Source of the DNA: a virus
Virus record (IMG/VR): IMGVR_UViG_3300046171_000138
Strand: one strand, 5' to 3'
DNA length: 64,000 bases
Shown here: in pieces, positions 1 through 14,066 of the stretch
Layout: every line of letters begins with the position of its first letter
Position numbering within the stretch: the first letter of the stretch is position 1
Program-made: the position numbers and the translations under genes
The notes under the pieces: model-generated
What the model saw: the letters and a program-made list of their open reading frames with translations, nothing else
The model's database searches: none
Told to the model about the DNA's origin: nothing

Positions 1-1
1 T

Positions 2-407: not shown

Positions 408-1102
408 TGGAACAATTTAGTAATGATATAAGTGGTGAGACAGTAGAAATTGCTACTATACCTATCTTTGCAACGCCATTGATAGTTACTAAATTCCCAA
501 AGCATGAATCATATGAATGGAAGTCATTTGATAGGGTAGTTAGAAAACCAGAGGTATGGTTTACTCCTCTCAATACATCATTCCCTAATATTAAGGAGGA
601 TGATCCGTATATTGATAATGAGACTGCGGAGAATGTTAAGAGAGATGTGTTAGAGCATTGCAAGAAAGTCCTTGCTTGCTATAATATGCCAGCTGACATA
701 CGATACAACGGCTTCTGGTATAATGCATACTATGAAGAACATGGTCAAGAACCACACGATCATTTGTCACCTGATAACTTAAACCCATACTGGTCTGGCA
801 TATACTTTGCAAGCAATTGTTGTGAAGGACAGTTGACATTCCAGAAAACAGATCTTTCCATGCGTACACAGCAATTGTTTAAGCATAGTGATAGTAAGAT
901 CTGTGACTATTACGAAGAACTCTGGACATCATACATTCATGATGGACATATATTGTTGTTCCCACCACATCTGAAACATGCTGTAAAGGTGGGTAAGGAG
1001 AATCGTAATAAGATGAGGTTGACATTCAGTTTTAATCTTGCTATTAATAGGAGTGCGTACTTACCTGATGAATATTTTCGTGACGAGTCAACATCCGACT
1101 GA
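404..1102 (+). CDS. 2OG-Fe(II) oxygenase (TIGR02466-like)
   Basis: HxD (EPHDH), WSGIYF, distal H (FPPHLKHAV) and RLTFSFN motifs. Confidence 0.85.
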   Translation: MMEQFSNDISGETVEIATIPIFATPLIVTKFPKHESYEWKSFDRVVRKPEVWFTPLNTSFPNIKEDDPYIDNETAENVKRDVLEHCKKVLACYNMPADIRYNGFWYNAYYEEHGQEPHDHLSPDNLNPYWSGIYFASNCCEGQLTFQKTDLSMRTQQLFKHSDSKICDYYEELWTSYIHDGHILLFPPHLKHAVKVGKENRNKMRLTFSFNLAINRSAYLPDEYFRDESTSD

Positions 1103-1580
1103 ATCAGCAGAGTGTTTACCTGACAAGCACATTGTCAAGATGCCATTAGAAACATGTCAGATGCTATCTATTGTATGCTCTGACAAGTGGGGTCATGGTT
1201 ATGGCACAATACCTAAAGCAGATGGTAATCCATATGCTACTGATAAAGGTGCATTCCGTAATCATCCTTGTACTAAATGGGCTAATGAGACTGTAGAGAA
1301 CTCTAGATGGTTGCTTGCTCATGGTATAGCATTATGTGAAGAGTATTTCAATCGATATGGTAAATGCCATACTTGTTTCAAGACTCTCCTTGTTGCTGAT
1401 GAGATCATTCCTTATGTTAAATGGGATAATCATACTCCATTTGTTCGTGCAATGCCTGAAGAGTACAAGTTTGATGATAGCATAGATACACTGACAGCAT
1501 ATAAAATGTATATTGCTTCTAAACCATGGGTATCTAGCAACTACCTACGACTACCGAACCGCAAACCTGACTGGATTTAA
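1068..1580 (+). CDS. Pyrimidine-dimer DNA glycosylase / endonuclease V (DenV)-like protein
   Basis: MNIFVT...LPDKHIVKMPLETCQML and NHPCTKW motifs recalled from this phage family. Confidence 0.7.
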   Translation: MNIFVTSQHPTESAECLPDKHIVKMPLETCQMLSIVCSDKWGHGYGTIPKADGNPYATDKGAFRNHPCTKWANETVENSRWLLAHGIALCEEYFNRYGKCHTCFKTLLVADEIIPYVKWDNHTPFVRAMPEEYKFDDSIDTLTAYKMYIASKPWVSSNYLRLPNRKPDWI

Positions 1581-1723
1581 TGAAATATATTGTTCCTGTT
1601 GATGATGAAGGTGTGCTTACATTTCCTGATGAACTCATGGATAAATTAGATTGGCATCCAGGTGACACACTATTGTGGATAGATAACAAAGATGGATCAT
1701 TTACACTAAAGAAAGAAAACTAA
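1580..1723 (+). CDS. AbrB/MazE/SpoVT-like small DNA-binding protein
   Basis: 47-aa ORF absent from the track: MKYIVPVDDEGVLTFPDELMDKLDWHPGDTLLWIDNKDGSFTLKKEN; TAATG coupling at both ends. Confidence 0.75.
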   Translation: MKYIVPVDDEGVLTFPDELMDKLDWHPGDTLLWIDNKDGSFTLKKEN

Positions 1724-1944
1724 TGGCACTATCAAAATCAGTTGAAGACTCACTAGATGAAGCAGAGTCTAACCTACGTAATGCATTGTCATATGCTGCA
1801 AGACAAGAGAAACCTTTCATTTGTAATGCTATTGCAGAGATGATCAGCAAGATTGACTCAATGAAACAAATGGATAGCATCATGGATAAGCTTGATAACC
1901 GTAACTTTGGAGATAGTGGAACATGGGGACCAATCGTAGAGTAG
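1723..1944 (+). CDS. Hypothetical cyanophage protein
   Basis: ORF MALSKSVEDSLDEAESNLRNAL, coupled to upstream stop. Confidence 0.75.
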   Translation: MALSKSVEDSLDEAESNLRNALSYAARQEKPFICNAIAEMISKIDSMKQMDSIMDKLDNRNFGDSGTWGPIVE

Positions 1945-2096
1945 AGATCGAACTAGGATCAGACTTACAGGATGAGTATGAGTATTGGTTAGAAGCGAAG
2001 CGATCATTATGTACAGAACGCAGCATCAATTCATTTCTCAATTTCATATCAGTATATGGCACACACAACAACCCAAAAGACCCTGACAAAGCGTGA
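1923..2096 (+). CDS. Small hypothetical protein
   Basis: 57-aa ORF MGTNRRVEIELGSDLQDEYEYWLEAK..., read manually; fills the gap. Confidence 0.55.
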   Translation: MGTNRRVEIELGSDLQDEYEYWLEAKRSLCTERSINSFLNFISVYGTHNNPKDPDKA

Positions 2097-2259
2097 AGCA
2101 GTGTGGATCTGCAGACGCATGATCAAGGTGTGGCATAAAGAATTGCGTGGAGATGCATCAGGTAAGCAATTATACTGGTCATTTTTCCTTGACACACTAC
2201 ACAATTGTGGTAGAATATCTGATGAAGACCACGCAACATGGCAATGTCCATTCAAGTAA
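2056..2259 (+). CDS. Small hypothetical protein
   Basis: ORF track; ends ...TWQCPFK. Confidence 0.65.
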   Translation: MAHTTTQKTLTKREAVWICRRMIKVWHKELRGDASGKQLYWSFFLDTLHNCGRISDEDHATWQCPFK

Positions 2260-2426
2260 CACTGACCAAAGAAGAACTAAACATCATTTGGAGCGCACTA
2301 CAATACATGACACGCGGACAAGAGAGTGTTGTCACGACAAAGTATGGTAGTGTCTCCGAGTTGGCACAAAGAATTGACTTCTACCTGTCTACAGGAAGAC
2401 ATGGGAAAGATCTAGACCTGCTGTGA
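2238..2426 (+). CDS. Small hypothetical protein
   Basis: ORF track; tight packing. Confidence 0.6.
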   Translation: MAMSIQVTLTKEELNIIWSALQYMTRGQESVVTTKYGSVSELAQRIDFYLSTGRHGKDLDLL

Positions 2427-2480
2427 CAGTATACAAACCGCCACACATCAGCTCGCCACGCACTCGTTGCGCTCTACAAT
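2423..2480 (+). promoter_or_regulatory. Dyad-associated sigma70-like promoter
   Basis: GTGACAG-TATACAAA-CCGCCAC (2423-2444); TCGCCA; -10 TACAAT 2475-2480. Confidence 0.7.
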
Positions 2481-2506
2481 ATGCAAGTACACAACAGGAG
2501 CACCCT

Positions 2507-2653
2507 ATGTGGGATGAGATCAACGACATGGAAGGCGAAATCTTCGATCGTTTAGACGTTGATGATGATCTTCCCTCCATTCTGTCGCTCACTGATGAAG
2601 ACATTAATCAGTTGATTGACGAGCACGAAGCAAACACTGACGACAACAACTGA
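2507..2653 (+). CDS. Small acidic hypothetical protein
   Basis: MWDEINDMEGEIFD...; AGGAG upstream. Confidence 0.7.
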   Translation: MWDEINDMEGEIFDRLDVDDDLPSILSLTDEDINQLIDEHEANTDDNN

Positions 2654-2655
2654 TC

Positions 2656-2817
2656 ATGCAAAAGTACGAACTCACCATTCAATCTAACAGTGGAAAATTT
2701 CTTCAACGACACATCGTTTCTCGACAAACTGCACAAACTGTCTGCGATTTCGTCAAATACAACGGATACCAAAACTACGCCGATGTTAAACTCATCGTCG
2801 CAGAATGCTGCTATTGA
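2656..2817 (+). CDS. Small hypothetical protein
   Basis: 53-aa ORF MQKYELTIQSNSGKF..., read manually. Confidence 0.55.
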   Translation: MQKYELTIQSNSGKFLQRHIVSRQTAQTVCDFVKYNGYQNYADVKLIVAECCY

Positions 2818-2908
2818 TGAACCTGATGTATTTGCCATGGCATTAGAATCTCGTGCAGCATATTATGAAGTGACAGTGGATTATTACATTGAAGAGTTTC
2901 TTCTGTAG
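2783..2908 (+). CDS. Small hypothetical protein
   Basis: MLNSSSQ...MALESRAAYYEVTVDYYIEEFLL. Confidence 0.55.
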   Translation: MLNSSSQNAAIDEPDVFAMALESRAAYYEVTVDYYIEEFLL

Positions 2909-2944
2909 TATACATATCAATGAATAATTCACAAGTATTCATCC

Positions 2945-3088
2945 ATGACTGATATCGAACAATCCATGGTAGATGAGATGAAATCACTCATCAAAGATCA
3001 CGCAGACACGATCAACGATCAAGCTGCTTACATCGAAGAACTGCAACAACAAATGTCCGACATGCACGATAGATTCTATGACTGCTGA
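2945..3088 (+). CDS. Small coiled-coil hypothetical protein
   Basis: 47-aa ORF MTDIEQSMVDEMKSLIKDH..., read manually. Confidence 0.6.
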   Translation: MTDIEQSMVDEMKSLIKDHADTINDQAAYIEELQQQMSDMHDRFYDC

Positions 3089-3347
3089 TGTTATTCATGA
3101 CCTTGATTCACACCTAGACAGTGGTCATGTGTGGAGACTTGAACTCGAACAAGAGTGGCAAGATGATCAAGCAGAACCACCTAATGGTGTGTATACTGTC
3201 TGCAACTCACGTCATCGCACCAAATCAGAGAGTCTAGCAATGTATATTGCTCACACACTATATCCTGACATTTCATTCATCACGATGACAGATCAACCAT
3301 GTACGAGAGACAACTATGTATCCAGTAGGGACAGAAGTAGAGTATGA
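3078..3347 (+). CDS. Hypothetical cyanophage protein
   Basis: ORF track (SGHVWRLELE...AMYIAHTLYPD). Confidence 0.7.
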   Translation: MTADVIHDLDSHLDSGHVWRLELEQEWQDDQAEPPNGVYTVCNSRHRTKSESLAMYIAHTLYPDISFITMTDQPCTRDNYVSSRDRSRV

Positions 3348-3508
3348 TGGATACTATGGTGTTGTGACCTTCAACTATGAAGATAAACAATGCACCATAT
3401 GCATCAAAGTCTGTACCTGATGACATCCCTAGATCAGTCTGTCTCGTAGTAACGAAACAAAACTTTCACAAAATTCACCTCATCAACGGAAACCGAAGCG
3501 ATTCTTGA
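3316..3508 (+). pseudogene. Small hypothetical gene split by an apparent +1 frameshift
   Basis: MYPVGTEVEYDGYYGVVTF...CTICIK (stop 3418-3420) continues in the +1 frame as VPDDIPRSVCLVVTKQNFHKIHL (stop 3506-3508). Confidence 0.5.
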
Positions 3509-3512
3509 CATC

Positions 3513-3659
3513 ATGGAACAATACAACTTTGAAATGGGTAACTACGAAGGCGACTGGACAGATGATCCAGCAGTTCGGGAGTCTATCTTGCGTGATGCAG
3601 CCGAGCAGGTGCTGTGGGACAGTATCGAAACTGTACCACCAGAACTGGACGAGTTCTGA
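3513..3659 (+). CDS. Small acidic hypothetical protein
   Basis: 48-aa ORF MEQYNFEMGNYEGDWTDDP..., read manually. Confidence 0.6.
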   Translation: MEQYNFEMGNYEGDWTDDPAVRESILRDAAEQVLWDSIETVPPELDEF

Positions 3660-3673
3660 CCACAGACTATACT
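3616..3673 (+). promoter_or_regulatory. Dyad-associated sigma70-like promoter
   Basis: GGGACAG-TATCGAAA-CTGTACC (3616-3637); -10 TATACT 3668-3673. Confidence 0.7.
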
Positions 3674-3695
3674 GATGCTATCAACACCAGAACAA

Positions 3696-3941
3696 ATGCT
3701 GATTGACACCCAACTGCTCTCCGTCATCGAGTCCCTCCAGGATGCCCTGCAAGTGGGTGAGAATGCTACTAACCTAGATTCCCCTGTAGACTCTGATGGA
3801 GACGCTCTGAAGGACTGTCTAGACGACTCTCCTGCTCCTTCGTATGCATATGCATATGGTTGGACTGCTGCTAGCATCAAATCTGCGTTGTTTTCACTCG
3901 AAACTATTCGTACACAACTTATCAACGCGAAAACAATGTGA
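3696..3941 (+). CDS. Hypothetical protein
   Basis: ORF; start placed downstream of the -10 box. Confidence 0.65.
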   Translation: MLIDTQLLSVIESLQDALQVGENATNLDSPVDSDGDALKDCLDDSPAPSYAYAYGWTAASIKSALFSLETIRTQLINAKTM

Positions 3942-4285
3942 ACAATCATCATTTAGACAGACACCTAACACAAGATCAGATAAACAGTGCCGCTCACGAG
4001 CAGGTTGATAATTTCTTTGAAAGTAATGATAAGTTTATCTTGCCTGAAGATCCCCTGTTTAAATATGATCCTGTATACCTCCCTCATCGTAAGTGTCAAT
4101 GTTGTGATCATGATAAGTTCTTCCTAGAATATCATTACAAACGTTGGGATACAGGAAAGAAGAGATTGTCTCACTTTGGTCTGCTACGTTGTGATAAATG
4201 TGGTTCAGCTATTACATGGGTGAACGGAGACCTACGTGATGCACTTATCGAAAGAAACAACATTAACATAGCAGAGATAGACTAA
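3938..4285 (+). CDS. Hypothetical protein with two CxxC pairs (possible Zn-ribbon)
   Basis: CQCCDH and CDKCG motifs. Confidence 0.6.
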   Translation: MNNHHLDRHLTQDQINSAAHEQVDNFFESNDKFILPEDPLFKYDPVYLPHRKCQCCDHDKFFLEYHYKRWDTGKKRLSHFGLLRCDKCGSAITWVNGDLRDALIERNNINIAEID

Positions 4286-4500
4286 TGAAACTCGATAGTA
4301 AAGCGAGAGTTGTAGGCAGTGTTGGAGTCATCACTGCCTATTTTATTATCTTGCATGTGAATGTAATCACTGGTGTGGTGTTAAATTGTATTGCTGATGT
4401 GATCAGCATTCCATACTTCATCAGGACAAAATCATGGGACGTGGTGATCATGGTAGTGTTCTTGCTCATGATCAGCATGTCCAAGCTGACCACCTCTTGA
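4285..4500 (+). CDS. Small membrane protein
   Basis: About three hydrophobic segments in 71 aa. Confidence 0.7.
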   Translation: MKLDSKARVVGSVGVITAYFIILHVNVITGVVLNCIADVISIPYFIRTKSWDVVIMVVFLLMISMSKLTTS

Positions 4501-4543
4501 AGTGTCCACTATTGTGGCACAGCACCCCATAACCGTGTATATT
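4487..4543 (+). promoter_or_regulatory. Dyad-associated sigma70-like promoter
   Basis: TGACCAC-CTCTTGAA-GTGTCCA (4487-4508); -10 TATATT 4538-4543. Confidence 0.7.
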
Positions 4544-4567
4544 AAGAGAGTCAACGCAATGCACCCC

Positions 4568-4810
4568 ATGACAGTCCAAGTCGTCAAGCACTCTCACTAC
4601 AAGATCGAGATCGACACCAAGGATCTCTCGTTTCCAATCGTGTATTTCCGTAAAGAAGGCAAGTGTAAGACTGCCAAGGGCATGGAGCGTCAGCACGAAC
4701 GCATCGTGAGCGAGGTTATCGAGGACTGGCGTCAGTTTGACAGTCAGATCAAGCGTTTCACTGTCTCCCGTGTGCCAGCAGACGAAGTGCCCACCAACTT
4801 GTCGAAATAG
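4568..4810 (+). CDS. Hypothetical cyanophage protein
   Basis: MTVQVVKHSHYKIEIDT...; start downstream of promoter. Confidence 0.7.
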   Translation: MTVQVVKHSHYKIEIDTKDLSFPIVYFRKEGKCKTAKGMERQHERIVSEVIEDWRQFDSQIKRFTVSRVPADEVPTNLSK

Positions 4811-4830
4811 GGCACCAGATGCCCTATACT
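4772..4830 (+). promoter_or_regulatory. Dyad-associated sigma70-like promoter
   Basis: GTGCCAG-CAGACGAA-GTGCCCA (4772-4793); -10 TATACT 4825-4830. Confidence 0.7.
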
Positions 4831-4856
4831 TAATTCATCAGCAACCAACCCACACC

Positions 4857-5108
4857 ATGCAACTCACAAACAACGTCTGCACTGTTGACTTCTTTCCCGA
4901 GGCATTCATTGCTGAAGGTGACAACGTGATCGTCAAGCGTTTCCAGAAGCGTGTTACATTCAACAATGGCACTAAATCTTACAGCACTGTGACTATGTTG
5001 ACAGCACAGAATGAGTGGGAGACACGTATCGCTAACGGTGCTACAGTTAATGGATACAACATGTCACAAATGCCACGCTCCGAGTATGCTCCAATGGCAG
5101 TAGGTTGA
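4857..5108 (+). CDS. Hypothetical cyanophage protein
   Basis: MQLTNNVCTVDFFPEAFIAE... Confidence 0.7.
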   Translation: MQLTNNVCTVDFFPEAFIAEGDNVIVKRFQKRVTFNNGTKSYSTVTMLTAQNEWETRIANGATVNGYNMSQMPRSEYAPMAVG

Positions 5109-5173
5109 TCCGAGGGTTTATATAATTGTGTCTCCAGCCGCGAGACCTTCCCTCATTCTTTTCTTTCTTCATC

Positions 5174-5347
5174 ATGCTTTTCGATCTCCCAGTTTACAAG
5201 AAACAACTTCCACAAGTATGGTTGGAGGATGGTAAGTTTATCATCGAATCTGACTCGTTTCGTTATGTGATTGAAGATGACTTAAAACTATTGTTTAAGT
5301 TGTGCCGTCGTTTTAAGTCTGATGCTATCACTCAAACTTATGAGTAA
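5174..5347 (+). CDS. Small hypothetical protein
   Basis: MLFDLPVYKKQLPQVWLEDGKF... Confidence 0.65.
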   Translation: MLFDLPVYKKQLPQVWLEDGKFIIESDSFRYVIEDDLKLLFKLCRRFKSDAITQTYE

Positions 5348-5480
5348 GTCAAACTTCATTCAATACTCACTCGCATTTGTTGTCACGATCTTTGCAATGT
5401 CATCTTATTTGATGTTCCTTGCTCATCGTGACACACAGATGATGAACTACTACAACTCAACCATTCAGAAAACAAAATGA
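5340..5480 (+). CDS. Small single-TM protein
   Basis: 46-aa ORF MSKSNFIQYSLAFVVTIFAMSSYLMFLAHRD..., read manually. Confidence 0.6.
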   Translation: MSKSNFIQYSLAFVVTIFAMSSYLMFLAHRDTQMMNYYNSTIQKTK

Positions 5481-5572
5481 CAGTGAACGTACAACAGTGG
5501 GCAGCATATCTTCACTGGTTAGATGACTGTGAGTCAGGCTATGAGATGTTGTTAGTGTTAGATGCTGTATGA
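5477..5572 (+). CDS. Very small hypothetical protein
   Basis: 31-aa ORF with ATGA overlaps at both ends. Confidence 0.45.
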   Translation: MTVNVQQWAAYLHWLDDCESGYEMLLVLDAV

Positions 5573-5865
5573 CATTACCAACTGATTTCCCATACACAGC
5601 ACCAAAGCATTATTATTATGAATGTGAAGATTTCAAATCTAATGTGGTTGCTATATGGCTTTGTAACACTCAAAGTTATTCTTATAGCACTGATAGTCCT
5701 ATTCGTACCATCTGGGGATTCGTCAAGTTCAAGCGAACAAAGAGAAGCACTACGCACACTTACCATGCCCCCATCAACTCAAATAAGGTAGGTAAAGAGG
5801 TGTCGTTAAATAACACCACGGCATGGAGTGCAATGCCATTACTCAAATCATATGTAAGCACATGA
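5569..5865 (+). CDS. Conserved cyanophage hypothetical protein
   Basis: DFPYTAP...IRTIWGF...YHAPINSNKVGKEV motif recalled from cyanomyophage early genes. Confidence 0.75.
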   Translation: MTLPTDFPYTAPKHYYYECEDFKSNVVAIWLCNTQSYSYSTDSPIRTIWGFVKFKRTKRSTTHTYHAPINSNKVGKEVSLNNTTAWSAMPLLKSYVST

Positions 5866-6245
5866 ATGTAGAAGACGATCCAAATACTTATCGTACTCCT
5901 GGACTCTATGATGATCCTACAGTACATCAGCAATCACCACTCGAAAGACTGATCCTATCATTGTTTGAGAAGTTGAAGTGGGAACTTGATGATGACATTG
6001 AGATCACAATTTCAGGTAGTCAGACATCAGGTATTGATCAACCTGAAGGATACAATAAGAAATGGTCAACACCTCTTGGTGAGGTAAAGTATAATCATGA
6101 TGCATTCATTGTGATTAAGAACCGTGATCGTAGTCCTTTTGTACCATCAGTCGCACCACTACCATCACAACAGGGTGATAATCCTGAAATGATTCAACCA
6201 ACTGAAACCAATGACACTGACTTACAGCAAGGAACAACTGATTGA
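5862..6245 (+). CDS. Hypothetical protein
   Basis: ORF from ATG 5862, coupled to upstream stop. Confidence 0.65.
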   Translation: MNVEDDPNTYRTPGLYDDPTVHQQSPLERLILSLFEKLKWELDDDIEITISGSQTSGIDQPEGYNKKWSTPLGEVKYNHDAFIVIKNRDRSPFVPSVAPLPSQQGDNPEMIQPTETNDTDLQQGTTD

Positions 6246-6417
6246 TGCACTCGTGCATGAGTGGGACTATCTTTGTCATGATGATTACGATCCTGATGAT
6301 GACACACCAGAGGAGTATCGTCTGAAGTTAGAGTTACTCACTGTGGAAGAATTGGTAGAAGAAACATCAACTGGTGAAGGTTACACACTGGATGAGTTCA
6401 TGGACAATCATGGGTGA
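6211..6417 (+). CDS. Small acidic hypothetical protein
   Basis: MTLTYSKEQLIDALVHEWDYLCHDD... Confidence 0.7.
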   Translation: MTLTYSKEQLIDALVHEWDYLCHDDYDPDDDTPEEYRLKLELLTVEELVEETSTGEGYTLDEFMDNHG

Positions 6418-6470
6418 CAGTTCAAGAACTGGTCAGAACGCTTGACAGTGACCCCATAGGGCTGTATATT
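6414..6470 (+). promoter_or_regulatory. Dyad-associated sigma70-like promoter
   Basis: GTGACAG-TTCAAGAA-CTGGTCA (6414-6435); TTGACA 6442-6447, 17 bp, TATATT 6465-6470. Confidence 0.85.
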
Positions 6471-6494
6471 AAGAGAGTCAAAGGAACACATCCA

Positions 6495-6668
6495 ATGCTC
6501 GTCTCCGAATACTACATGATCAGTGCTGTCACTCCTGAAGATGGTGAGGTAAGTTATGAGACGATTGATCAGCAGTTGGCACGTAGCATACATTCTGAAT
6601 TGCTCGGTCGTCAACTGAATCAGGACGGTACGCATAGTGTCACAGTCCGTGTGCCAACACGCTCCTGA
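6495..6668 (+). CDS. Small hypothetical protein
   Basis: MLVSEYYMISAVTPEDGEV... Confidence 0.65.
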   Translation: MLVSEYYMISAVTPEDGEVSYETIDQQLARSIHSELLGRQLNQDGTHSVTVRVPTRS

Positions 6669-6679
6669 TCCATTATACT
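6622..6679 (+). promoter_or_regulatory. Dyad-associated sigma70-like promoter
   Basis: AGGACGG-TACGCATA-GTGTCAC (6622-6643); GTGCCA, 17 bp, TATACT 6674-6679. Confidence 0.7.
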
Positions 6680-6700
6680 AAACACATCAGCAAGGCATTC

Positions 6701-7159
6701 ATGACCACCACACCAATGAACAAAGAGTTTTCTGACTATTGTGCTCAACGTGACGCACAGAATAGTATTCAACTCAACATCACCAAGTATTGCTTTGAGT
6801 TATGTAATGCACTCTTGACAAACTATATCAATGAATCGATTCGTCGTCATGAGTTCTTGATGCCATCATCTGATAAGCAAGAGTATCATGCTGCATGTAT
6901 TGCAGATTTACAAGATGGTAATTGTGGTTATGAGTTTACTGTTGACACTGGTCGTAAGTATCACAAGATCATGATGCATACTGGTGGTACTAAATCAGTA
7001 CATGCATTTGTTGATCGTAAGACTGGTGAAGTATACAAACCAGCAAGTATCAAAGCACCTGCCAAGGGAGTACGATTCAATATGCTCATTCTTTCACAAC
7101 GTAATTGGTTGTTAGAGAATGCTGATTGGGCTGGTGGTTATCTGTACCGCAGGGGTTGA
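6701..7159 (+). CDS. Conserved cyanophage early protein of unknown function
   Basis: KYHKI...SVHAFVDRKTGEVYKPAS.KAPAKGVR...WAGGYLY motif. Confidence 0.8.
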   Translation: MTTTPMNKEFSDYCAQRDAQNSIQLNITKYCFELCNALLTNYINESIRRHEFLMPSSDKQEYHAACIADLQDGNCGYEFTVDTGRKYHKIMMHTGGTKSVHAFVDRKTGEVYKPASIKAPAKGVRFNMLILSQRNWLLENADWAGGYLYRRG

Positions 7160-7184
7160 CATTCAACTCAATACATAGTATACT
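7156..7184 (+). promoter_or_regulatory. Near-consensus sigma70 promoter
   Basis: TTGACA 7156-7161, 17 bp, TATACT 7179-7184. Confidence 0.85.
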
Positions 7185-7199
7185 CACTTCAGTTCACTC

Positions 7200-7427
7200 A
7201 TGACCACGATGGAATCCGATTTCATGTATGTTGTCGTTAATGGCGAAGCAATCATGTTAGAGAACGGCACCACAACTACTTACCTAGTTGATGATGACGG
7301 TACAATTGACTGGGATAGTCACGATACTCTTGATTGGGAGGATATGCTACCTGAAGAGTATAAACTGTACAAGGCAGCATATGATTTCCTTGCTACGTAC
7401 AACAACACTTACATGTATACCAAATGA
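7200..7427 (+). CDS. Small acidic hypothetical protein
   Basis: ORF track. Confidence 0.65.
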   Translation: MTTMESDFMYVVVNGEAIMLENGTTTTYLVDDDGTIDWDSHDTLDWEDMLPEEYKLYKAAYDFLATYNNTYMYTK

Positions 7428-7651
7428 ATCTCGTCACTGAACACGTTCTAGAACTGCTAGAACCCATCACCGAAGAACTGAAGGTCAAACCAAGACTTGA
7501 TATCTCTGACAGGGAATATCAACTGTTCTGGCGTTATCATGGTCACTATCCTGCCGAGTTTGCTGCTGCTCTGATGAAAGCATTACCTGAAGGTTATACT
7601 TTCGTTGAGTATGATCACTTGAATAACAAACTCACTACCACTCATGAATAA
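7424..7651 (+). CDS. Small hypothetical protein
   Basis: ORF track; ATGA overlap. Confidence 0.65.
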   Translation: MNLVTEHVLELLEPITEELKVKPRLDISDREYQLFWRYHGHYPAEFAAALMKALPEGYTFVEYDHLNNKLTTTHE

Positions 7652-7922
7652 AGCACTCCAAGAACAACTCTCCAGACAAATGGATATGATCATGGAGAAT
7701 CGACTACGACGATTCAAGTTTCTCATACGTAAAGATCGTATGGAAGATGCTTTCTCTATTGCTGATGAGTTCTATGAGTGGATGCATCCTGATCACCAAG
7801 ATGATGATGACCTGATTGTGTATTACAATGAAGAAGAACTCGAAGCCCTCTACTACCAAAAGAAAGTCCAAAGCCTCTCCGAAGATCTTGAAGATTACGG
7901 ATCGGCGGAAGAACATTACTGA
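7644..7922 (+). CDS. Hypothetical cyanophage protein
   Basis: ORF track. Confidence 0.65.
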   Translation: MNKALQEQLSRQMDMIMENRLRRFKFLIRKDRMEDAFSIADEFYEWMHPDHQDDDDLIVYYNEEELEALYYQKKVQSLSEDLEDYGSAEEHY

Positions 7923-8157
7923 TTGGCCACCACATTCTAAACACTTCCCCTATAGACTTGAATGGATCTATCATAATGATAAGATCATCGCTATGTTTGA
8001 GTGTGAACATCATCTTAACAAACACCTGATAAGATACAAACTCAACAAACGTAACTCCAGGGTAGACATCTTCCCTGATCATACACATACATTTAAATCT
8101 AACTACAAGAAACCTAAACGTCAACTCTTCTCCACCCTTGAGGATTTCTTCCAATGA
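7828..8157 (+). CDS. Hypothetical cyanophage protein with basic N-terminus overlapping the upstream gene
   Basis: FPYRLEW...FECEHHLNKHLIRYKL; start uncertain. Confidence 0.6.
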   Translation: MKKNSKPSTTKRKSKASPKILKITDRRKNITDWPPHSKHFPYRLEWIYHNDKIIAMFECEHHLNKHLIRYKLNKRNSRVDIFPDHTHTFKSNYKKPKRQLFSTLEDFFQ

Positions 8158-8288
8158 AACTTAAAACAACAACAAAACAATTTATCAACTCCAAAGGTGA
8201 TAAGTGGGAATGGGAAGAGACAGAAGAACTCATTAAAGCAATTCAGAAACTCGAACAGTATGCACCTGATTATGGTGTAGGCAAATGA
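8154..8288 (+). CDS. Small hypothetical protein
   Basis: 44-aa ORF MKLKTTTKQFINSKGDKWEWEE..., read manually; ATGA overlaps. Confidence 0.6.
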   Translation: MKLKTTTKQFINSKGDKWEWEETEELIKAIQKLEQYAPDYGVGK

Positions 8289-8503
8289 ATTATGATGGAC
8301 CATTGTATGCACCATGGCACAAAGTATTACAAGGAAGAACTACAATGAAGTTTAATCTCGAAGAACTTAAGTATCTTCAGTCTATACTAGATCAATCATC
8401 ATCCTATGCAAAGGCAAGAGGTGAACAGGTAGATCATCCATCAGTATCACATCAACATATCATTCAGAAGATTCAATACCAAATACATAAACTCTCCTCA
8501 TGA
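8285..8503 (+). CDS. Small hypothetical protein
   Basis: MNYDGPLYAPWHKV...; ATGA overlaps. Confidence 0.6.
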   Translation: MNYDGPLYAPWHKVLQGRTTMKFNLEELKYLQSILDQSSSYAKARGEQVDHPSVSHQHIIQKIQYQIHKLSS

Positions 8504-8889
8504 GAGATCATAAGGCAGAGTATGCGAGGCTTTCACCTGAAGCAAAGGCAAGGAAGATAGCGAGGAACTTACTACCTGAAGTGATACAACGAAAAAAAGA
8601 ATGGTCTCTCCAAAGACTATCCACAAGAAGAGAACGAGAAGCATACAATTACAATGCTATTGTCTCTTTCCTTGAACAACGTGACAATCATGAAGGATGT
8701 ATAGGATGTGGAACAAAAGAACGATTAGAATTCGATCATATCAACCCAGAAGATAAAGAATTCGATCCTCGTCCTAGAATGGGTGCTAAAACTATGTCAG
8801 AGAGACAATGGAATGAAATTGCAAAGTGTCAACTCCTATGTTATGATTGCCATAGAGAGAAAACTGGAGATCAATTTCGTAAGCAATGA
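8500..8889 (+). CDS. HNH endonuclease (5-methylcytosine-restriction/homing-type fold)
   Basis: CIGC...LEFDHINP...CQLLCYDCHREKT: CxxC + DH + LCxxCH signature. Confidence 0.85.
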   Translation: MRDHKAEYARLSPEAKARKIARNLLPEVIQRKKEWSLQRLSTRREREAYNYNAIVSFLEQRDNHEGCIGCGTKERLEFDHINPEDKEFDPRPRMGAKTMSERQWNEIAKCQLLCYDCHREKTGDQFRKQ

Positions 8890-9116
8890 ACTATAGACAT
8901 AAAGCACCAACCAAATACTATGTTGTTGAGTATGAACACACATACTATAACCATACACATAGTACAAGGACAAAGGCAGTCTATTTTACACTTGAATCAG
9001 CACAAGAAGCATCACTTAAGATGATGAAGAGAGGACAACACATACATTCAGTACATGAAGAGAAACTGTTATCTAAACCTGATATACTCTCAATACACCG
9101 TACAGGCACTCCGTAG
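8886..9116 (+). CDS. Small hypothetical protein
   Basis: ORF track; ATGA overlap. Confidence 0.6.
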   Translation: MNYRHKAPTKYYVVEYEHTYYNHTHSTRTKAVYFTLESAQEASLKMMKRGQHIHSVHEEKLLSKPDILSIHRTGTP

Positions 9117-9160
9117 TAGCCACCAGGTATCTCAACGACACAATTTGATGATTTCTTAAC

Positions 9161-9185
9161 AACCTGTGGAAAAACCTGTGGAAAA
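9161..9185. repeat. Tandem 12-bp direct repeat AACCTGTGGAAA, each copy containing a DnaA-box-like TGTGGAAAA
   Basis: 9161-9172 and 9173-9184; reverse complement TTTTCCACA fits TTWTNCACA. Confidence 0.75.
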
Positions 9186-9266
9186 CTAAATGTATTAAAA
9201 AACATAGGTAATGTGCGGAGTTATTGTTGGTTTAGCGCCCCAGCACTCGAAAGTCAAGGAGCTTGT

Positions 9267-9325
9267 GTGACAGCCTGCGAAGTGACCCCGAGACCCTTGA
9301 CAAATTGGCGTTTCTGGGTTATTAT
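9267..9325 (+). promoter_or_regulatory. Dyad-associated sigma70-like promoter
   Basis: GTGACAG-CCTGCGAA-GTGACCC (9267-9288); TTGACA 9297-9302, 17 bp, TATTAT 9320-9325. Confidence 0.85.
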
Positions 9326-9342
9326 AGAAACATGGAAAAGGC

Positions 9343-9366
9343 AAAAAGTCAGTTTTTTGACTTTTT
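9343..9366. repeat. Perfect 9-bp inverted repeat (hairpin)
   Basis: AAAAAGTCA-GTTTTT-TGACTTTTT. Confidence 0.7.
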
Positions 9367-9390
9367 CAGAAAACTCAATTAATTAAAAAA

Positions 9391-9620
9391 ATGAATTTAA
9401 AGATTTTGAATCTTCTGCTATCTTTAGTTTAACTACCAATGAAGATAGTCTTGTTATTGTGTTCAAATCATCTGAAAAAGAGTATAATTACACTATAAAT
9501 GATACAAAATGGGTAGAATCACTCACTAATTGTATTAATAACAAAGAAAGTGTTGGTAAATTTGTATCAACTAGTCTAAAACATAAGAATATCCTAGAAA
9601 ACAAGGATAATTCTAAATAA
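9391..9620 (+). pseudogene. KTSC-like protein gene whose ATG is one base out of frame (-1 shift needed)
   Basis: Frame 9387-9620 encodes ..FKDFESSAIFSL...KEYNY...ESVGKFV.. with no start codon near its 5' end; ATG at 9391 lies in the adjacent frame. Confidence 0.6.
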
Positions 9621-9653
9621 TTACTCTATAATTGCTATTACTGACTAATAACA

Positions 9654-9824
9654 ATGAAAAACAATCGTAAGTACAATCCAGATAGTAATCACAAAGAACT
9701 TCAGATTGAAGATGATTATGAACACTTTGGATATGATGTTAAGAATGCCAAGAGATTCAAGAGCAGAGCGAAACGATCTGCCAAGTTCAGAAACTACGAT
9801 GAATATCGACTGAATTGTCAATAG
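9654..9824 (+). CDS. Small basic hypothetical protein
   Basis: 56-aa ORF MKNNRKYNPDSNHKELQIEDDYEHFGYDVKNAKR..., read manually. Confidence 0.65.
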   Translation: MKNNRKYNPDSNHKELQIEDDYEHFGYDVKNAKRFKSRAKRSAKFRNYDEYRLNCQ

Positions 9825-9828
9825 GTAG

Positions 9829-9885
9829 TGGACACTAGTTGAAGTGTCTACTATCACTTGCAATTTGATGTGGATCATGTAGTGT
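9829..9885 (+). promoter_or_regulatory. Dyad-associated sigma70-like promoter
   Basis: TGGACAC-TAGTTGAA-GTGTCTA (9829-9850) within a longer inverted repeat; TTGCAA 9858-9863; TAGTGT 9880-9885. Confidence 0.7.
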
Positions 9886-9908
9886 ATACACAGTTGAAAC
9901 ATTTTCAC

Positions 9909-10082
9909 ATGAGAGTCATCACTACCCCATCAACACGTAGGGGTTACATAGTGACCAAACATCGCACACAGGATGTAGATCAACGTACACTTGTGGATAA
10001 CTATGGGGCAGCTATGATTGTTGCCCATAACATAAGTGAAATCGAGGGTTGCCGTGTGACGGTTGACAAGGTGGCACGGTAG
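9909..10082 (+). CDS. Small hypothetical protein
   Basis: MRVITTPSTRRGYIV...; start downstream of promoter. Confidence 0.6.
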   Translation: MRVITTPSTRRGYIVTKHRTQDVDQRTLVDNYGAAMIVAHNISEIEGCRVTVDKVAR

Positions 10083-10114
10083 GGGTTGCAATCTCCTTCC
10101 CGTTCCTGTATTGT
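10056..10114 (+). promoter_or_regulatory. Dyad-associated sigma70-like promoter
   Basis: GTGACGG-TTGACAAG-GTGGCAC (10056-10077); TTGCAA 10086-10091, 17 bp, TATTGT 10109-10114. Confidence 0.8.
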
Positions 10115-10143
10115 ATTAACAAGTCAAACAACCGACACCAAAC

Positions 10144-10470
10144 ATGCGTAAGATCGAAACCCAGATGAACGCTGCCATCACAGCGAACGCCAACTGGTCT
10201 AAAGCAAACACATCCGTTAGCACCACCGATGGTGTGTCTGAAGTGCGTCTTCATGGTAACTTGATCGCAAAAGTTGGTGATGATTTTGTCACTGTATTTG
10301 ATGGAGGTTGGCAGTCTAACACCACCAAATCTCGTCTCAACGCTATCATCAACGAGTTCTGCAATGCATTCACTGATGGTGTATTTCAGAAGGACTTTCA
10401 GTGGTTCGTTCGTGACAACAAAGTCGTGAATGATTTCGTCAACGGTTACACATTCAGTGAGTTTGCATAG
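10144..10470 (+). CDS. Conserved marine phage hypothetical protein
   Basis: MRKIETQMNAAI...VRLHGNLIA...GGWQSNTTKSRLNA motif. Confidence 0.8.
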   Translation: MRKIETQMNAAITANANWSKANTSVSTTDGVSEVRLHGNLIAKVGDDFVTVFDGGWQSNTTKSRLNAIINEFCNAFTDGVFQKDFQWFVRDNKVVNDFVNGYTFSEFA

Positions 10471-10473
10471 GTG

Positions 10474-10497
10474 AGAGGGGTATATCCCCTCTTTTTT
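10474..10497 (+). terminator. Rho-independent terminator
   Basis: AGAGGGG-TATAT-CCCCTCT followed by a T-run. Confidence 0.8.
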
Positions 10498-10537
10498 ATT
10501 GTCTCCACTATGTAACACTAACTGATTCAGCCGCCCG

Positions 10538-10595
10538 TGGACGATCGACCTAGTGGCACACAGTCTCTCGCATTGCCTCTCACAGCCCCTATAAT
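10538..10595 (+). promoter_or_regulatory. Dyad-associated sigma70-like promoter
   Basis: TGGACGA-TCGACCTA-GTGGCAC (10538-10559); -10 TATAAT 10590-10595. Confidence 0.75.
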
Positions 10596-10601
10596 AAGGA
10601 C

Positions 10602-10799
10602 ATGAACGAAACGACCTACGAAATCTCTTGCCCCACCTTGGGTGAGACCGAGACCACGACCGACCTGGATCGTGCGATGGACATTTGCTACAGCATGCAT
10701 GATGAGTCAAACTCCTATGCATACATCCGAGATTCATTCGGTGATATCGTCGGAGAGTATGGCGACGTAATGGAAGCAGTTGCACTGGGGTTAGTTTGA
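10602..10799 (+). CDS. Small hypothetical protein
   Basis: ORF track; starts at the expected transcription start (near-leaderless). Confidence 0.7.
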   Translation: MNETTYEISCPTLGETETTTDLDRAMDICYSMHDESNSYAYIRDSFGDIVGEYGDVMEAVALGLV

Positions 10800-10972
10800 T
10801 GGAAAGGACAGGATTTTTCATGCATAGCGAGAACCCCTCGCCACTGATGCAGAAGGTCATGGAGAACATCCAACGCCAGCATCAGCAGGAGATGGAGTAT
10901 AGGCAGGCAGTCAGGGCAGGACGCATCCAACCAGACCAGTTCACGAGCTGGAACATTAGCGACAGACATTGA
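10799..10972 (+). CDS. Small hypothetical protein
   Basis: 57-aa ORF MERTGFFMHSENPSPLMQKVM..., TGATG coupling. Confidence 0.6.
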   Translation: MERTGFFMHSENPSPLMQKVMENIQRQHQQEMEYRQAVRAGRIQPDQFTSWNISDRH

Positions 10973-10990
10973 TCGCTGACCGACTAGGAT
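10933..10990 (+). promoter_or_regulatory. Dyad-associated sigma70-like promoter
   Basis: AGACCAG-TTCACGAG-CTGGAAC (10933-10954); -10 TAGGAT 10985-10990. Confidence 0.6.
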
Positions 10991-11013
10991 ACACACAAGA
11001 AACAAAACAAACA

Positions 11014-11259
11014 ATGGATCAACCAACCTACGCCGTCCAACCTGCAGCATGGGGCAACTTCGATGGATGGGGTTGCGACTATAGCCCCACGATCGAGGAT
11101 GCATACAAAGCATGCAAGATCTGGCGTGAGATGGGTGAGTCTGGCGACATGATGATCTTTCGTATCCTACCAGGTGGCAACCCCATCCGATGGGTGAGAG
11201 TCTACGCTGACGAATCAATCGAGAGTGTGACAACCCAAGAGCTGGCACTGCTTAAGTAG
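11014..11259 (+). CDS. Small hypothetical protein
   Basis: MDQPTYAVQPAAWGNFDGWG... Confidence 0.7.
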   Translation: MDQPTYAVQPAAWGNFDGWGCDYSPTIEDAYKACKIWREMGESGDMMIFRILPGGNPIRWVRVYADESIESVTTQELALLK

Positions 11260-11284
11260 GCAACGCCACCACATCGACTAGAAT
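11227..11284 (+). promoter_or_regulatory. Dyad-associated sigma70-like promoter
   Basis: GTGACAA-CCCAAGAG-CTGGCAC (11227-11248); -10 TAGAAT 11279-11284. Confidence 0.7.
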
Positions 11285-11311
11285 TCAAAAGTAAACAACA
11301 AAGGACACAGC

Positions 11312-11533
11312 ATGAACGGTTGGGCAACTTACGAAACTTGGAACGCTGCACTGTGGATCGGCAACGATGAGACGATCTACCGCCACGCCAAACTGAATAA
11401 GAACCTCGGCTACCGCAAGTGGGCAAAGCGTTTCATTGATGAATTCGGTGAGTACATCACAGGCGACGGGGTTGCCTGGTTGCATGACGACATCGACCAA
11501 GATGAGATGGATGCCATGCTCGCAGAACTGTAA
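11312..11533 (+). CDS. Conserved phage hypothetical protein (NGWxxYETW family)
   Basis: MNGWATYETWNAALWIGNDE motif. Confidence 0.8.
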   Translation: MNGWATYETWNAALWIGNDETIYRHAKLNKNLGYRKWAKRFIDEFGEYITGDGVAWLHDDIDQDEMDAMLAEL

Positions 11534-11550
11534 GGGGTCGCCCCCTTCCA

Positions 11551-11559
11551 TGCTACAAT
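11551..11559 (+). promoter_or_regulatory. Extended -10 promoter element
   Basis: TGCTACAAT, 24 bp before the nuclease-like ORF. Confidence 0.55.
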
Positions 11560-11582
11560 ACACAAGAACACAACCCCACACC

Positions 11583-12152
11583 ATGAACGCCACCGCTTTT
11601 AATCTCGACAACGCCGTTCGGATCTATGAGGAGACGATCGCTCCTCTTCATGCTCGCTACCTGTCAGAAGACAACGCAGGCGGCAAGATGAGAGCATCGA
11701 TGGGCGACCTCTATGAGGACGTGGCACAGGCAGTGATCTATGCAGTCGATCCCTCCATCGTGTGTAAGCACAACGATTATATCATGATCGAGAGCAGGGG
11801 AGGCAAGAGCTACAAGAAAACACAGGTGGACATCCATGCATACAAGGATGGAGAACTGATCTTTATTGTAGAGGGCAAGACCTATCTAGACTCCTCCATG
11901 CTGGACCGTGCCTGCAGTGAGTTCGACAAGATCCGCCGTGTCTACCCTGGCATCCCTGCCGCTGTGTTCACAGGACAGGACGCCACCGACCCAGACTCTG
12001 CCGCTTGGTTTGCTGATGAGACAGATCATCAGGTATTTGTCGTCAACCAAACCAAGCAACGCAGGAGCACAGCGCCGATCTTTGAGACTGCCGACCCGCT
12101 GGACATGATGGCACTACAGGCATTTGCCCGATGGGTTGACTCCTGCCTGTGA
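11583..12152 (+). CDS. PD-(D/E)XK (restriction-endonuclease-like) nuclease
   Basis: GDLYE helix, QVDIH strand and IVEGKTYLD (E-x-K) motif in the expected order. Confidence 0.65.
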   Translation: MNATAFNLDNAVRIYEETIAPLHARYLSEDNAGGKMRASMGDLYEDVAQAVIYAVDPSIVCKHNDYIMIESRGGKSYKKTQVDIHAYKDGELIFIVEGKTYLDSSMLDRACSEFDKIRRVYPGIPAAVFTGQDATDPDSAAWFADETDHQVFVVNQTKQRRSTAPIFETADPLDMMALQAFARWVDSCL

Positions 12153-12163
12153 TCTGGTAGACT
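12136..12163 (+). promoter_or_regulatory. Sigma70-like promoter
   Basis: TTGACT 12136-12141, 16 bp, TAGACT 12158-12163. Confidence 0.6.
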
Positions 12164-12186
12164 ATCCAAAGAACACAACCCACAGC

Positions 12187-12384
12187 ATGATGATTTCACT
12201 AGACACCAGAGAGCACAGCAGCGCCACCGACAAAATCCAACTATTCCCCCTGTCCCGTATAGTTTTCATCCATTGGTCCTCGGGTCACTACTCCATGCAC
12301 CGTGCCCGCCTTCGTGATATGTTATTACTTTTGGACCAACGAATTGGATTCGGTGAGTGGTGCAATCGTTACGCTCTTAACTAA
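12187..12384 (+). CDS. Small hypothetical protein, possibly KTSC-like
   Basis: SSATDKI...VFIHWSSGHYS...FGEWCN pattern. Confidence 0.55.
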   Translation: MMISLDTREHSSATDKIQLFPLSRIVFIHWSSGHYSMHRARLRDMLLLLDQRIGFGEWCNRYALN

Positions 12385-12389
12385 CATTA

Positions 12390-12427
12390 ATCTGGGCACG
12401 TTAGCGTTGCATCGGTAAGTCCCAGAT
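12390..12427. repeat. Imperfect hairpin at end of early block
   Basis: ATCTGGG (12390-12396) pairs with CCCAGAT (12421-12427), plus inner AC/GT and TTA/TAA pairs. Confidence 0.6.
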
Positions 12428-12445
12428 CAACACTATGTAACACCA

Positions 12446-12471
12446 GGGGGCAGTAAAACGCCCCCTTTATT
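12446..12471 (+). terminator. Probable Rho-independent terminator closing the early block
   Basis: GGGGGC-AGTAAAAC-GCCCCC followed by TTTATT. Confidence 0.65.
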
Positions 12472-12558
12472 GTATACCCCCGAATGCCGAGCGGGACTCC
12501 TACCACTACTCTAACCTACAAAGTGTTACCCAAGCAAGATAAATATTCCAAGGAAATA

Positions 12559-12587
12559 AAAAAATTTCCCCAGAAAAAATTTCCCCA
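12559..12587. repeat. Direct repeat AAAAAATTTCCCCA x2 (period 15)
   Basis: 12559-12572 and 12574-12587. Confidence 0.8.
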
Positions 12588-12600
12588 AAATAGTTGAATC

Positions 12601-12807
12601 ATGAAAGACTACGATCGCTTTATTAATAAGCAAGCAGAAGTATTGAATGAGTTCGATGATTTCTGCGAACAATTCGAGAAACGTGCTGCCGAGAACTTTA
12701 AGAACCCAAACAAACAAGATGAAAGATTTGAACTCCTCCGAGAAATCAGCGAACCTGGAAGAGGTGCTATCGATAGCATTCCAGGAGATACGGGAACTGA
12801 AAGCTGA
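12601..12807 (+). CDS. Conserved cyanophage hypothetical protein
   Basis: QAEVLNEFDDFCEQFEKRA motif. Confidence 0.7.
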   Translation: MKDYDRFINKQAEVLNEFDDFCEQFEKRAAENFKNPNKQDERFELLREISEPGRGAIDSIPGDTGTES

Positions 12808-12922
12808 AGTCGAGCGTCTAAAGTCTCCAAGTCTCATGTATAGACGCCCTGGTGCTGTCGCACATGAGAAGATAACAGATTACTTGGATGATGTAGATAA
12901 ACGACTAAAGAAATTAGAATAA
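12719..12922 (+). CDS. Conserved cyanophage coiled-coil hypothetical protein
   Basis: IRELKAEVERLKSPSLMYRRPG...DYLD motif. Confidence 0.7.
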   Translation: MKDLNSSEKSANLEEVLSIAFQEIRELKAEVERLKSPSLMYRRPGAVAHEKITDYLDDVDKRLKKLE

Positions 12923-13753
12923 TGGCAATTCTCATACCTGCAGGAACATCATTTACTTTAGGATCTGGACCTGGGTGGAGGATGTTGCCGCCTCCGAGTA
13001 ACTTTGTGATACCTGGAATGTTTCGAGATGGTATAAATCTGAATATCTATGAGAACGTGGGGGTAGTGAATGTCACTGCTCAAGCAAACTTGGTATGTCC
13101 TGGAGGAACACCTGGTCCCTCACAGCCGAGTCCCGAGTTAATCACAGGTATCAGTATTGGTATCATGCCACCTGGTTGTATTGTACTAGCGGGTGGTGTA
13201 CCGACTATACCAGAGATGTTAGTAGGCACTGATGCTGTGACATTCGGGAGTATCAGTGTAGCACCTGGAGTCACCACATTAGTATTGCCAATCCCACTCA
13301 TTGGTAATTACACGGAGAAGTGGATGTATGATATGCAGGCAGGTTTTGGAGAAAGTTACAAAGGTAGTACAAGTACCACGTACCAGGGACAATATGAGGG
13401 GTGTCACATTTCAGGGAGGACTTGGAGTGCAGAAAACCTTTAAGCGTGATGAGAAGTTAAAGAGAATCAGTGGATCGGGAAGGCTCTCTGCATATCAGGC
13501 AACACCTGAAGGTAGGGAGTTTGTTGGACCTTTTGTACATGATATAGCACAGAGGGGTAGTAACTATGTACATGCTTATAAACCGTCTCTGATCAAAACT
13601 CTGCGTTTTCATTATGAGATTACAGTTACGAGTACATGTCCACCATACATCTGGAAGTTCCCAGCATTTATCGATGTAGATAACAACTGGCAAAATCACA
13701 CGAAGCGTACTAAATATCGTTTAAGTAAGCAAACCGAAGCAAGAGAAGGATAA
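12922..13753 (+). CDS. Probable baseplate-associated structural protein, split into two overlapping ORFs (12922-13443 and 13301-13753)
   Basis: Directly upstream of the PAAR gene; overlapping +1-frame ORFs; N- and C-halves resemble one recalled cyanophage protein. Confidence 0.55.
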
Positions 13754-14052: not shown

Positions 14053-14057
14053 ATCTG

Positions 14058-14066
14058 TGGTATAAT
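14058..14066 (+). promoter_or_regulatory. Extended -10 sigma70-like promoter
   Basis: TGGTATAAT upstream of ORF 14090. Confidence 0.55.

Follow-up and report, generated by a model that had tools for sequence, protein, structure and literature searches.

Early-type promoters of a T4-like cyanophage share a 22-bp dyad with half-sites and spacing like those of host yfr2 promoters

The closest described counterpart of the element studied here comes from T4-like cyanophages themselves. Doron et al. (2016) reportedly found a novel regulatory element that controls early-gene transcription in Syn9 and P-TIM40; such elements are said to be abundant and conserved among T4-like cyanophages, where they lie upstream of a host-type -10 box, with no binding factor named. 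The stretch of DNA analyzed here, referred to as the window, is the 64,000-nucleotide IMG/VR virus record IMGVR_UViG_3300046171_000138, which derives from a T4-like cyanomyovirus (Kyanoviridae) with marine cyanobacteria as hosts. Its nearest public relatives are S-CAM1, S-CAM4, S-CAM3 and S-RIM44 (~80-87% identity over patches). Twelve promoters of the window share a 22-bp dyad at a fixed distance upstream of the -10 box, which we take to be the element of Doron et al.; this identity rests on what is reported of that element and on our scan of Syn9. The two have in common a T4-like cyanophage, small early genes and a position upstream of the -10 box. The dyad class is very probably already known, being the same as the Syn9 early element, because the window dyad also precedes small genes of Syn9. 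As a motif, the window is one more instance of that element.

T4-like cyanophages drive their first genes without the MotA/AsiA switch of T4. Marine members of this group lack motA, asiA and T4-type middle promoters (PMC5780444). The sites of CRP, NtcA and MotA resemble the window dyad in that a dimer or an activator binds at a set spacing before a promoter whose -35 hexamer is poor. However, both the consensus and the spacing of the NtcA (GTA-N8-TAC) and CRP (TGTGA-N6-TCACA) sites are unlike those of the dyad; the matrix of 68 sites described below conserves bases at other spacings, as the original prediction made from this sequence had held. The MotA box of T4 replaces the -35 hexamer and requires AsiA, unlike the window dyad.

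Two further systems are closer. PeSLs (promoter-early stem-loops) are repeated composite elements that head small open reading frames (ORFs) in hyperplastic regions (PMC2839356, PMC4122927). Their dyads, like those of the window, lie directly upstream of an early sigma-70-type promoter and are associated with cassette shuffling; the PeSL dyads, however, are described as stem-loops and terminators with lineage-specific stems, whereas the window dyads keep their sequence and not their pairing. The other system belongs to the hosts. CGRE1 is a palindrome of 21-22 nt in the yfr2 promoters of Prochlorococcus and marine Synechococcus, and is bound by the GntR regulator PMM1637 (PlmA subfamily) in pull-down and band-shift experiments (PMC6191309). 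The authors of that study tied CGRE1 to the induction of Yfr2, which responds to high light and nitrogen stress (PMC6191309).

The dyad promoters of the window are all located within a block of about 40 small ORFs, all on the plus strand, that occupies bases 1-15,400 upstream of gp25; the late genes (gp25, gp6, and giant baseplate and fibre genes) run from 15,026 onward. The twelve dyads of the original prediction were all located exactly as 22-mers, and their offsets of 51-53 bp, measured from the dyad start to the TAnnnT hexamer of the -10 box, are all exact. A position matrix was built from these twelve 22-mers, and both strands of the 64 kb were scanned. Some of the original sites had been picked with the expected offset in mind, but a blind scan recovers exactly the same twelve sites and one orphan (13386). 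Leave-one-out scores of the twelve sites range from 10.8 to 21.6 bits, and the best match elsewhere in the 2 x 64 kb reaches ~11.6 bits. At a threshold of at least 12 bits, the 13 plus-strand matches all fall within bases 1-15,400, and the 48.6 kb of late genes are empty; in first-order Markov simulations of the small-gene block, such matches average 0.5 and never exceed 3. The TAnnnT hexamer occurs at 1.9% of positions and is present at offsets 51-53 in 12 of 14 matches (binomial P ~6e-14), and no second TAnnnT was found within offsets 46-57 at any of the twelve promoters. The pattern is genuine and strongly non-random, and it supports a separate class of promoters for the small-gene, early-type region; the 'host-takeover' role ascribed to the downstream genes is inferred.

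The same promoters are widespread in related phages, which were scanned over stretches of ~40 kb each, except for Syn9, which was complete at 177 kb. Each homologous region of S-CAM1, S-CAM4, S-CAM3 and S-RIM44 contains 9-12 dyad promoters at the expected offset, and the whole Syn9 genome contains 12. Among the 89 matrix matches in five other cyanophage genomes, the TAnnnT offsets cluster at 51 (24 matches), 52 (30) and 53 (13), with background levels at other offsets. Late genes that are empty at 12 bits and this peak, sharp in six genomes, both speak for the early-class promoters proposed below. The Prochlorococcus phage P-SSM3 has six dyad promoters in the corresponding region, again at offsets 51-53, and a single control, Melnitz-2, a Kyanoviridae relative with a methylotroph host, has none in the 40 kb examined. 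Small genes of Syn9 that are headed by a dyad at the same offset include gp61, gp68, gp73, gp75, gp78, gp90 and others; dyads with a -10 box after them lie, among others, at Syn9 positions 44775, 47205, 48559, 49079, 51001, 52997, 127493, 148743 and 162054. Across genera, orthologous genes retain the dyad while the DNA between dyad and -10 box differs.

The anatomy of the element was derived from 68 promoter-linked sites. The entire 22 bp is palindromic, with a correlation of 0.88 between the frequency matrix and its own reverse complement. The half-site is the 9-bp sequence GTGMCAGTT, of which two copies face outwards from a 4-nt centre. This structure replaces the directional spacer of the original prediction: the 8-bp spacer is the inner part of the palindrome, T T n n n n A A, and is better kept on the promoter side, and the promoter-side half as a whole is better conserved (9.4 versus 7.4 bits). 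The -35 region is weak, with T, T and G at its first three positions in 27, 31 and 23 of the sites, in line with the poor -35 boxes noted before. A conserved C-A, 6-7 nt after the -10 box, likely marks the transcription start. With the start placed 7 nt after the -10 box, as in all predicted starts given below, the dyad spans ~-64 to -43 and is centred at ~-53.5, close to the -53 proposed earlier. It keeps its spacing from the -10 box to within 1 bp, although the intervening DNA varies.

A dyad in such a position could be a PeSL-type stem-loop, in which a terminator hairpin joined to an early promoter ends upstream transcripts and provides a recombination point for cassette shuffling. The setting is the same, a hyperplastic small-ORF region with the dyad directly before an early promoter (PMC4122927), and two cassettes of the window are swapped in order relative to S-CAM1, S-CAM3 and S-CAM4 with the promoter sequence staying put. 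The dyads themselves make this reading very improbable. At the 11 symmetric pairs, Watson-Crick counts equal the column-shuffle expectation (z -1.3 to +1.6), so that covariation is absent; the arms are imperfect, with 2-6 of 7 positions paired and all seven paired in no site. Folding is weak, averaging -3.1 kcal/mol for the 22-mers versus -2.1 for shuffles, and six of the twelve window sites fold weaker than -2 kcal/mol. Most dyads (9 of 12) lie inside the upstream open frame or across its end, no T run follows them, ordinary terminators occur elsewhere in the phage, and the spacing to the -10 box is constant to within 1 bp. The reading as hairpin or terminator was therefore rejected on account of absent covariation, weak folding, dyads in coding sequence and separate true terminators. 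A PeSL-type hairpin is largely excluded as a structure, and recombination at the repeats may occur as a by-product. Conservation of sequence, the lack of compensatory change and a fixed -10 distance despite variable DNA between support instead the interpretation of the dyad as the site of a two-fold symmetric DNA-binding protein, and the fixed distance points to a role linked to the polymerase. The proposal of a homodimer site that defines a promoter class stands as regards the symmetric site and the distinct class; the choice between an activator and a repressor still depends on interpretation.

Host promoters were examined in marine Synechococcus genomes that were found through psbA; Yfr2-type RNAs were located by the Rfam family Cyano-1, and their upstream regions were read. 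Every Cyano-1 match carries a GTGAGGAG-type motif, complementary to the UCCU core of Yfr1 (core from PMC6778093). The true order of CGRE1 was taken from the sequences upstream of these matches, as a reading with GTTG first and CAAC last proved wrong: in five host genomes it was no more frequent than its reversed control. In the host site, an inverted copy of the half-site is followed by 1-2 nt and then by GTGMCAGTT. Full sites (up to 2 mismatches) occur once or twice per genome, always beside a Cyano-1 locus, in agreement with PMC6778093. With a half-site matrix derived exclusively from phage sites, a score of at least 9 bits is reached in 26 of 41 regions upstream of Cyano-1/Yfr2-type RNAs of Cyanobiaceae, and 14 of those 26 contain the exact half-site. 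In 16 of 24 host promoters, 43-44 nt separate the end of the promoter-side half-site from the -10 box; the phage distal half-site, in the same orientation, is 42-44 nt from its own -10 box.

CGRE1 and the phage dyad are alike as palindromes of 21-22 bp upstream of a promoter, with an identical 9-bp half-site, and the host promoter-side and phage distal half-sites share both orientation and a distance of 43±1 nt to the -10 box. They differ in the place of the partner half-site, which lies upstream across a 1-2 nt centre in the hosts and downstream across a 4-nt centre in the phages, where the half-sites face outwards; the symmetry axis is at ~-65 in the former and ~-53.5 in the latter. Full sites also number 1-2 per host genome, all at yfr2 (PMC6778093), versus 6-12 in each phage stretch examined. 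The position typical of CGRE1, with a proximal edge ~55-57 nt before the start, is found in the phages for one half-site only. An inverted repeat with a 1-2 nt centre is not the phage arrangement (outward half-sites, 4-nt centre), and no host-type site (up to 3 mismatches) was found in any phage sequence examined. At the place of the second phage half-site, the host promoters have a degenerate box with a phage-matrix score of -0.7 bits versus -13.8 ± 6.9 for shuffles.

The yfr2-type promoters of the hosts fall into three classes. The first has a full CGRE1 ~43 nt from the -10 box, the second a full CGRE1 that covers the -35 region, with 19-21 nt between it and the RNA motif, and the third a lone half-site with a conserved TAGCGCC-like box after it. 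In one host promoter, two half-sites form a direct repeat, 11 bp apart. The half-site behaves as a module, since host promoters with a single half-site and one with a direct repeat exist.

We consider it probable that the dyad promoters are early-class promoters activated through the symmetric site by a protein, most likely encoded by the host, with PlmA as the leading candidate. Each promoter would combine a good -10 box and a weak -35 region with a 22-bp two-fold symmetric site at ~-64 to -43. A protein with a pair of identical DNA-binding domains would recognize the sequence of the site, one 9-bp half-site per domain, and once bound would help the RNA polymerase of the host, carrying the main sigma factor, to initiate where a good -35 hexamer is absent. 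Such a protein would most likely be host-encoded and present before infection. PlmA (PMM1637 in Prochlorococcus MED4), the only GntR-family regulator that marine picocyanobacteria have, would be the leading candidate. We infer protein binding, the identity of PlmA and activation from the sequence comparisons.

Exactly one GntR gene, a frame of 334-356 aa, is present in each of five Synechococcus genomes, and no GntR domain was found in five complete phage genomes translated in six frames. The early genes of generalist cyanophages are expressed even when the host is resistant (PMC6708340), in keeping with a host factor that is conserved. A literature search found no paper that links cyanophages with CGRE1 or PlmA. 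The factor that the original prediction left without a name now has a candidate, in that the half-sites and their distance to the -10 box match those of the CGRE1/PlmA-dependent yfr2 promoters of the hosts. PlmA is the leading candidate for the dyad-binding protein because the phage promoters copy both the half-site and the half-site-to-(-10) distance of the yfr2/CGRE1 promoters, and the shared 43-nt distance is what makes the half-site match convincing; the assignment is a tentative one. Held with slightly more reserve is the broader proposal that cyanophages start infection by borrowing the PlmA of their host. The early promoters would then be rebuilt yfr2 promoters, with the same half-site 43 nt from the -10 box and the second half-site moved to the promoter side.

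Several observations weigh against activation by PlmA. The phage half-sites are inside-out relative to CGRE1, and a rigid dimer could not bind both arrangements. Five host genomes show no enrichment of the phage arrangement (7 forward versus 40 reversed-control matches at 2 mismatches), so that there is no host precedent for its binding. The yfr5 promoter, which has one good half-site, was not shifted (PMC6191309), and a lone half-site is therefore insufficient in vitro. Moreover, a match to the 9-bp consensus is worth only ~9 bits, and classical class I activators do not usually bind with their centre near -53.5.

The inside-out arrangement is confined to phages, and the same promoter class could accordingly have a binder other than PlmA: a phage protein that arrives in the virion or is the first to be made, or else a different factor of the host, whose preferred half-site happens to resemble or mimic CGRE1. 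T4 injects transcription modifiers, which sets a precedent, and most small phage ORFs have no known family, among which a DNA-binding protein could pass unrecognized. We regard such a binder as unlikely. In addition to the missing GntR domains in the five complete phage genomes, no helix-turn-helix or other DNA-binding family was found by Pfam in the ten proteins scanned (nine window ORFs and gp230, the 'transcriptional regulator' of Syn9). That the half-site keeps exactly the spacing to the -10 box seen in the hosts is difficult to account for unless a partner is shared, and the absence of dyad promoters from Melnitz-2, whose host is not a cyanobacterium, also speaks against it (40 kb, one control).

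The weak -35 hexamers bear on the direction of regulation. They could be offset by upstream contacts of the polymerase that a bound protein masks, in which case the dyad would be an operator for early shut-off: a host or early phage repressor at -64 to -43 would block these contacts, standing in for the AsiA/Mod route of T4 that cyanophages lack. Some host yfr2 promoters do have a full CGRE1 over the -35 region, a repressor-like position. A dyad whose end is 6-8 bp upstream of the -35 hexamer is, however, poorly placed for steric repression, and such very poor -35 hexamers call for help rather than hindrance. CGRE1, moreover, is linked to the induction of Yfr2 (PMC6191309). An operator is rather improbable, more so than a different binder.

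With PlmA as the preferred candidate for the activator, the useful part of the comparison is that the exact correspondence with host yfr2 promoters turns an unknown factor into one named protein that can be purified. PlmA is tied to the PII-PipX network of nitrogen and energy signalling (PMC5083789). Should PlmA be the factor, how strongly early phage genes are transcribed would depend on the nutrient and light state of the host, because of this tie and of the induction of Yfr2 (PMC6191309). The onset of infection in the most abundant phototrophs of the ocean would then be wired to host nitrogen and light status, and the cassettes would be ready-made early promoters, valid across the host range, for cyanophage genetics.

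The twelve promoters are all on the plus strand; scores given here are those of the window matrix, and the starts are predicted ones. The promoter at 2423-2480 (dyad 2423-2444, -10 box 2475-2480; offset 52, 21.9 bits, start 2487) precedes an ORF from ATG 2507, and its dyad overlaps the stop codon of the preceding ORF. At 3616-3673 (dyad 3616-3637, -10 box 3668-3673; offset 52, 18.8 bits, start 3680), the dyad is within the upstream open frame. The promoter at 4487-4543 (dyad 4487-4508, -10 box 4538-4543; offset 51, 16.0 bits, 17.8 bits on the other strand, start 4550) has the upstream stop codon inside the dyad and serves an ORF from ATG 4559. It is followed at 4772-4830 (dyad 4772-4793, -10 box 4825-4830; offset 53, 24.3 bits, start 4837) by a promoter with an ORF from ATG 4857 and a dyad within the upstream open frame. 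The promoter at 6414-6470 (dyad 6414-6435, -10 box 6465-6470; offset 51, 21.2 bits, start 6477) has a consensus -35 hexamer, a 22-mer that is a near-perfect palindrome, and an ORF from ATG 6495. The ORF downstream of the promoter at 6622-6679 (dyad 6622-6643, -10 box 6674-6679; offset 52, 20.6 bits, start 6686) spans 6701-7159 (DUF7717).

The remaining six promoters lie between 9267 and 11284. The one at 9267-9325 (dyad 9267-9288, -10 box 9320-9325; offset 53, 23.5 bits, start 9332) also has a consensus -35 hexamer, and the only frame that it drives, of 16 codons, opens at 9333, at the predicted start. The next is at 9829-9885 (dyad 9829-9850, -10 box 9880-9885; offset 51, 17.3 bits, start 9892). 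The highest score belongs to 10056-10114 (dyad 10056-10077, -10 box 10109-10114; offset 53, 24.4 bits, start 10121), which precedes an ORF of the Kyano_Gp96 family (10144-10470); the Syn9 orthologue, gp90, likewise has a dyad. At 10538-10595 (dyad 10538-10559, -10 box 10590-10595; offset 52, 19.2 bits, start 10602), ATG 10602 coincides with the predicted start, the mRNA is probably leaderless, and a distinct canonical terminator lies at 10473-10493. In the promoters at 10933-10990 (dyad 10933-10954, -10 box 10985-10990; offset 52, 19.2 bits, start 10997) and 11227-11284 (dyad 11227-11248, -10 box 11279-11284; offset 52, 22.0 bits, start 11291), the dyad is within the upstream open frame, with ORFs from ATG 11014 and ATG 11312, respectively.

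Two dyad-like sites have no -10 box at the expected offset, and may be relics, chance matches or sites with another role. The orphan at 13386-13407, in a small ORF, was detected by the blind scan only (16.2 and 16.9 bits on the two strands), with TAnnnT absent from the expected offset on both strands; the other is at 53523-53544, near the end of a giant structural gene. A GGCACAG box, beginning 22 nt before the -10 box, is found in promoter 4487 and its orthologues (window 4514-4528), at the place where some Synechococcus yfr2 promoters have a full CGRE1 over the -35 region. As a general second, host-type element of the spacer it was rejected, being present in 7 of the 68 promoters, in two orthologous families.

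The genes after promoters 4487 and 4772 (window 4487-5108) are reversed in order in S-CAM1, S-CAM4 and S-CAM3, where a promoter with the same spacer sequence keeps the first place and heads the other gene. The swapped cassettes look like an exchange at promoters, as proposed for PeSLs, and suggest recombination at the dyad repeats.

Pfam matches in the small-gene block comprise a 2OG-Fe(II) oxygenase (404-1102), the DUF7717 ORF (6701-7159), an HNH endonuclease (8500-8889) and the Kyano_Gp96 family ORF (10144-10470). Canonical intrinsic terminators, with a GC-rich stem and a T run, are located apart from the dyads at 10473-10493, 12445-12466 and 14327-14361. An Rfam scan of bases 1-16,000 gave no RNA families at E up to 0.1. 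At 658-685, 2189-2216, 7156-7184 and 14038-14066 there are sigma-70-type promoters close to consensus, in which both the -35 and the -10 hexamer are good, and the matrix scan detected no dyad upstream of any of these four. Doron et al. (2016) are said to have assigned 'host-like' promoters to middle genes, and the dyad-free promoters may be of this type.

An ATG is found 7 nt after the -10 box, at the predicted start, in 14 of the 68 dyad promoters, including those with ATG 10602 and the frame at 9333 in the window; the early mRNAs of these 14 promoters may be leaderless. The region after promoter 9267 (9326-9400) contains the 16-codon frame and a short hairpin with a T run, and is followed by ~250 bp of AT-rich non-coding DNA. 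The 16-codon frame is conserved in S-CAM1 with a synonymous change, and the product of this promoter may be a micro-protein or a short RNA.

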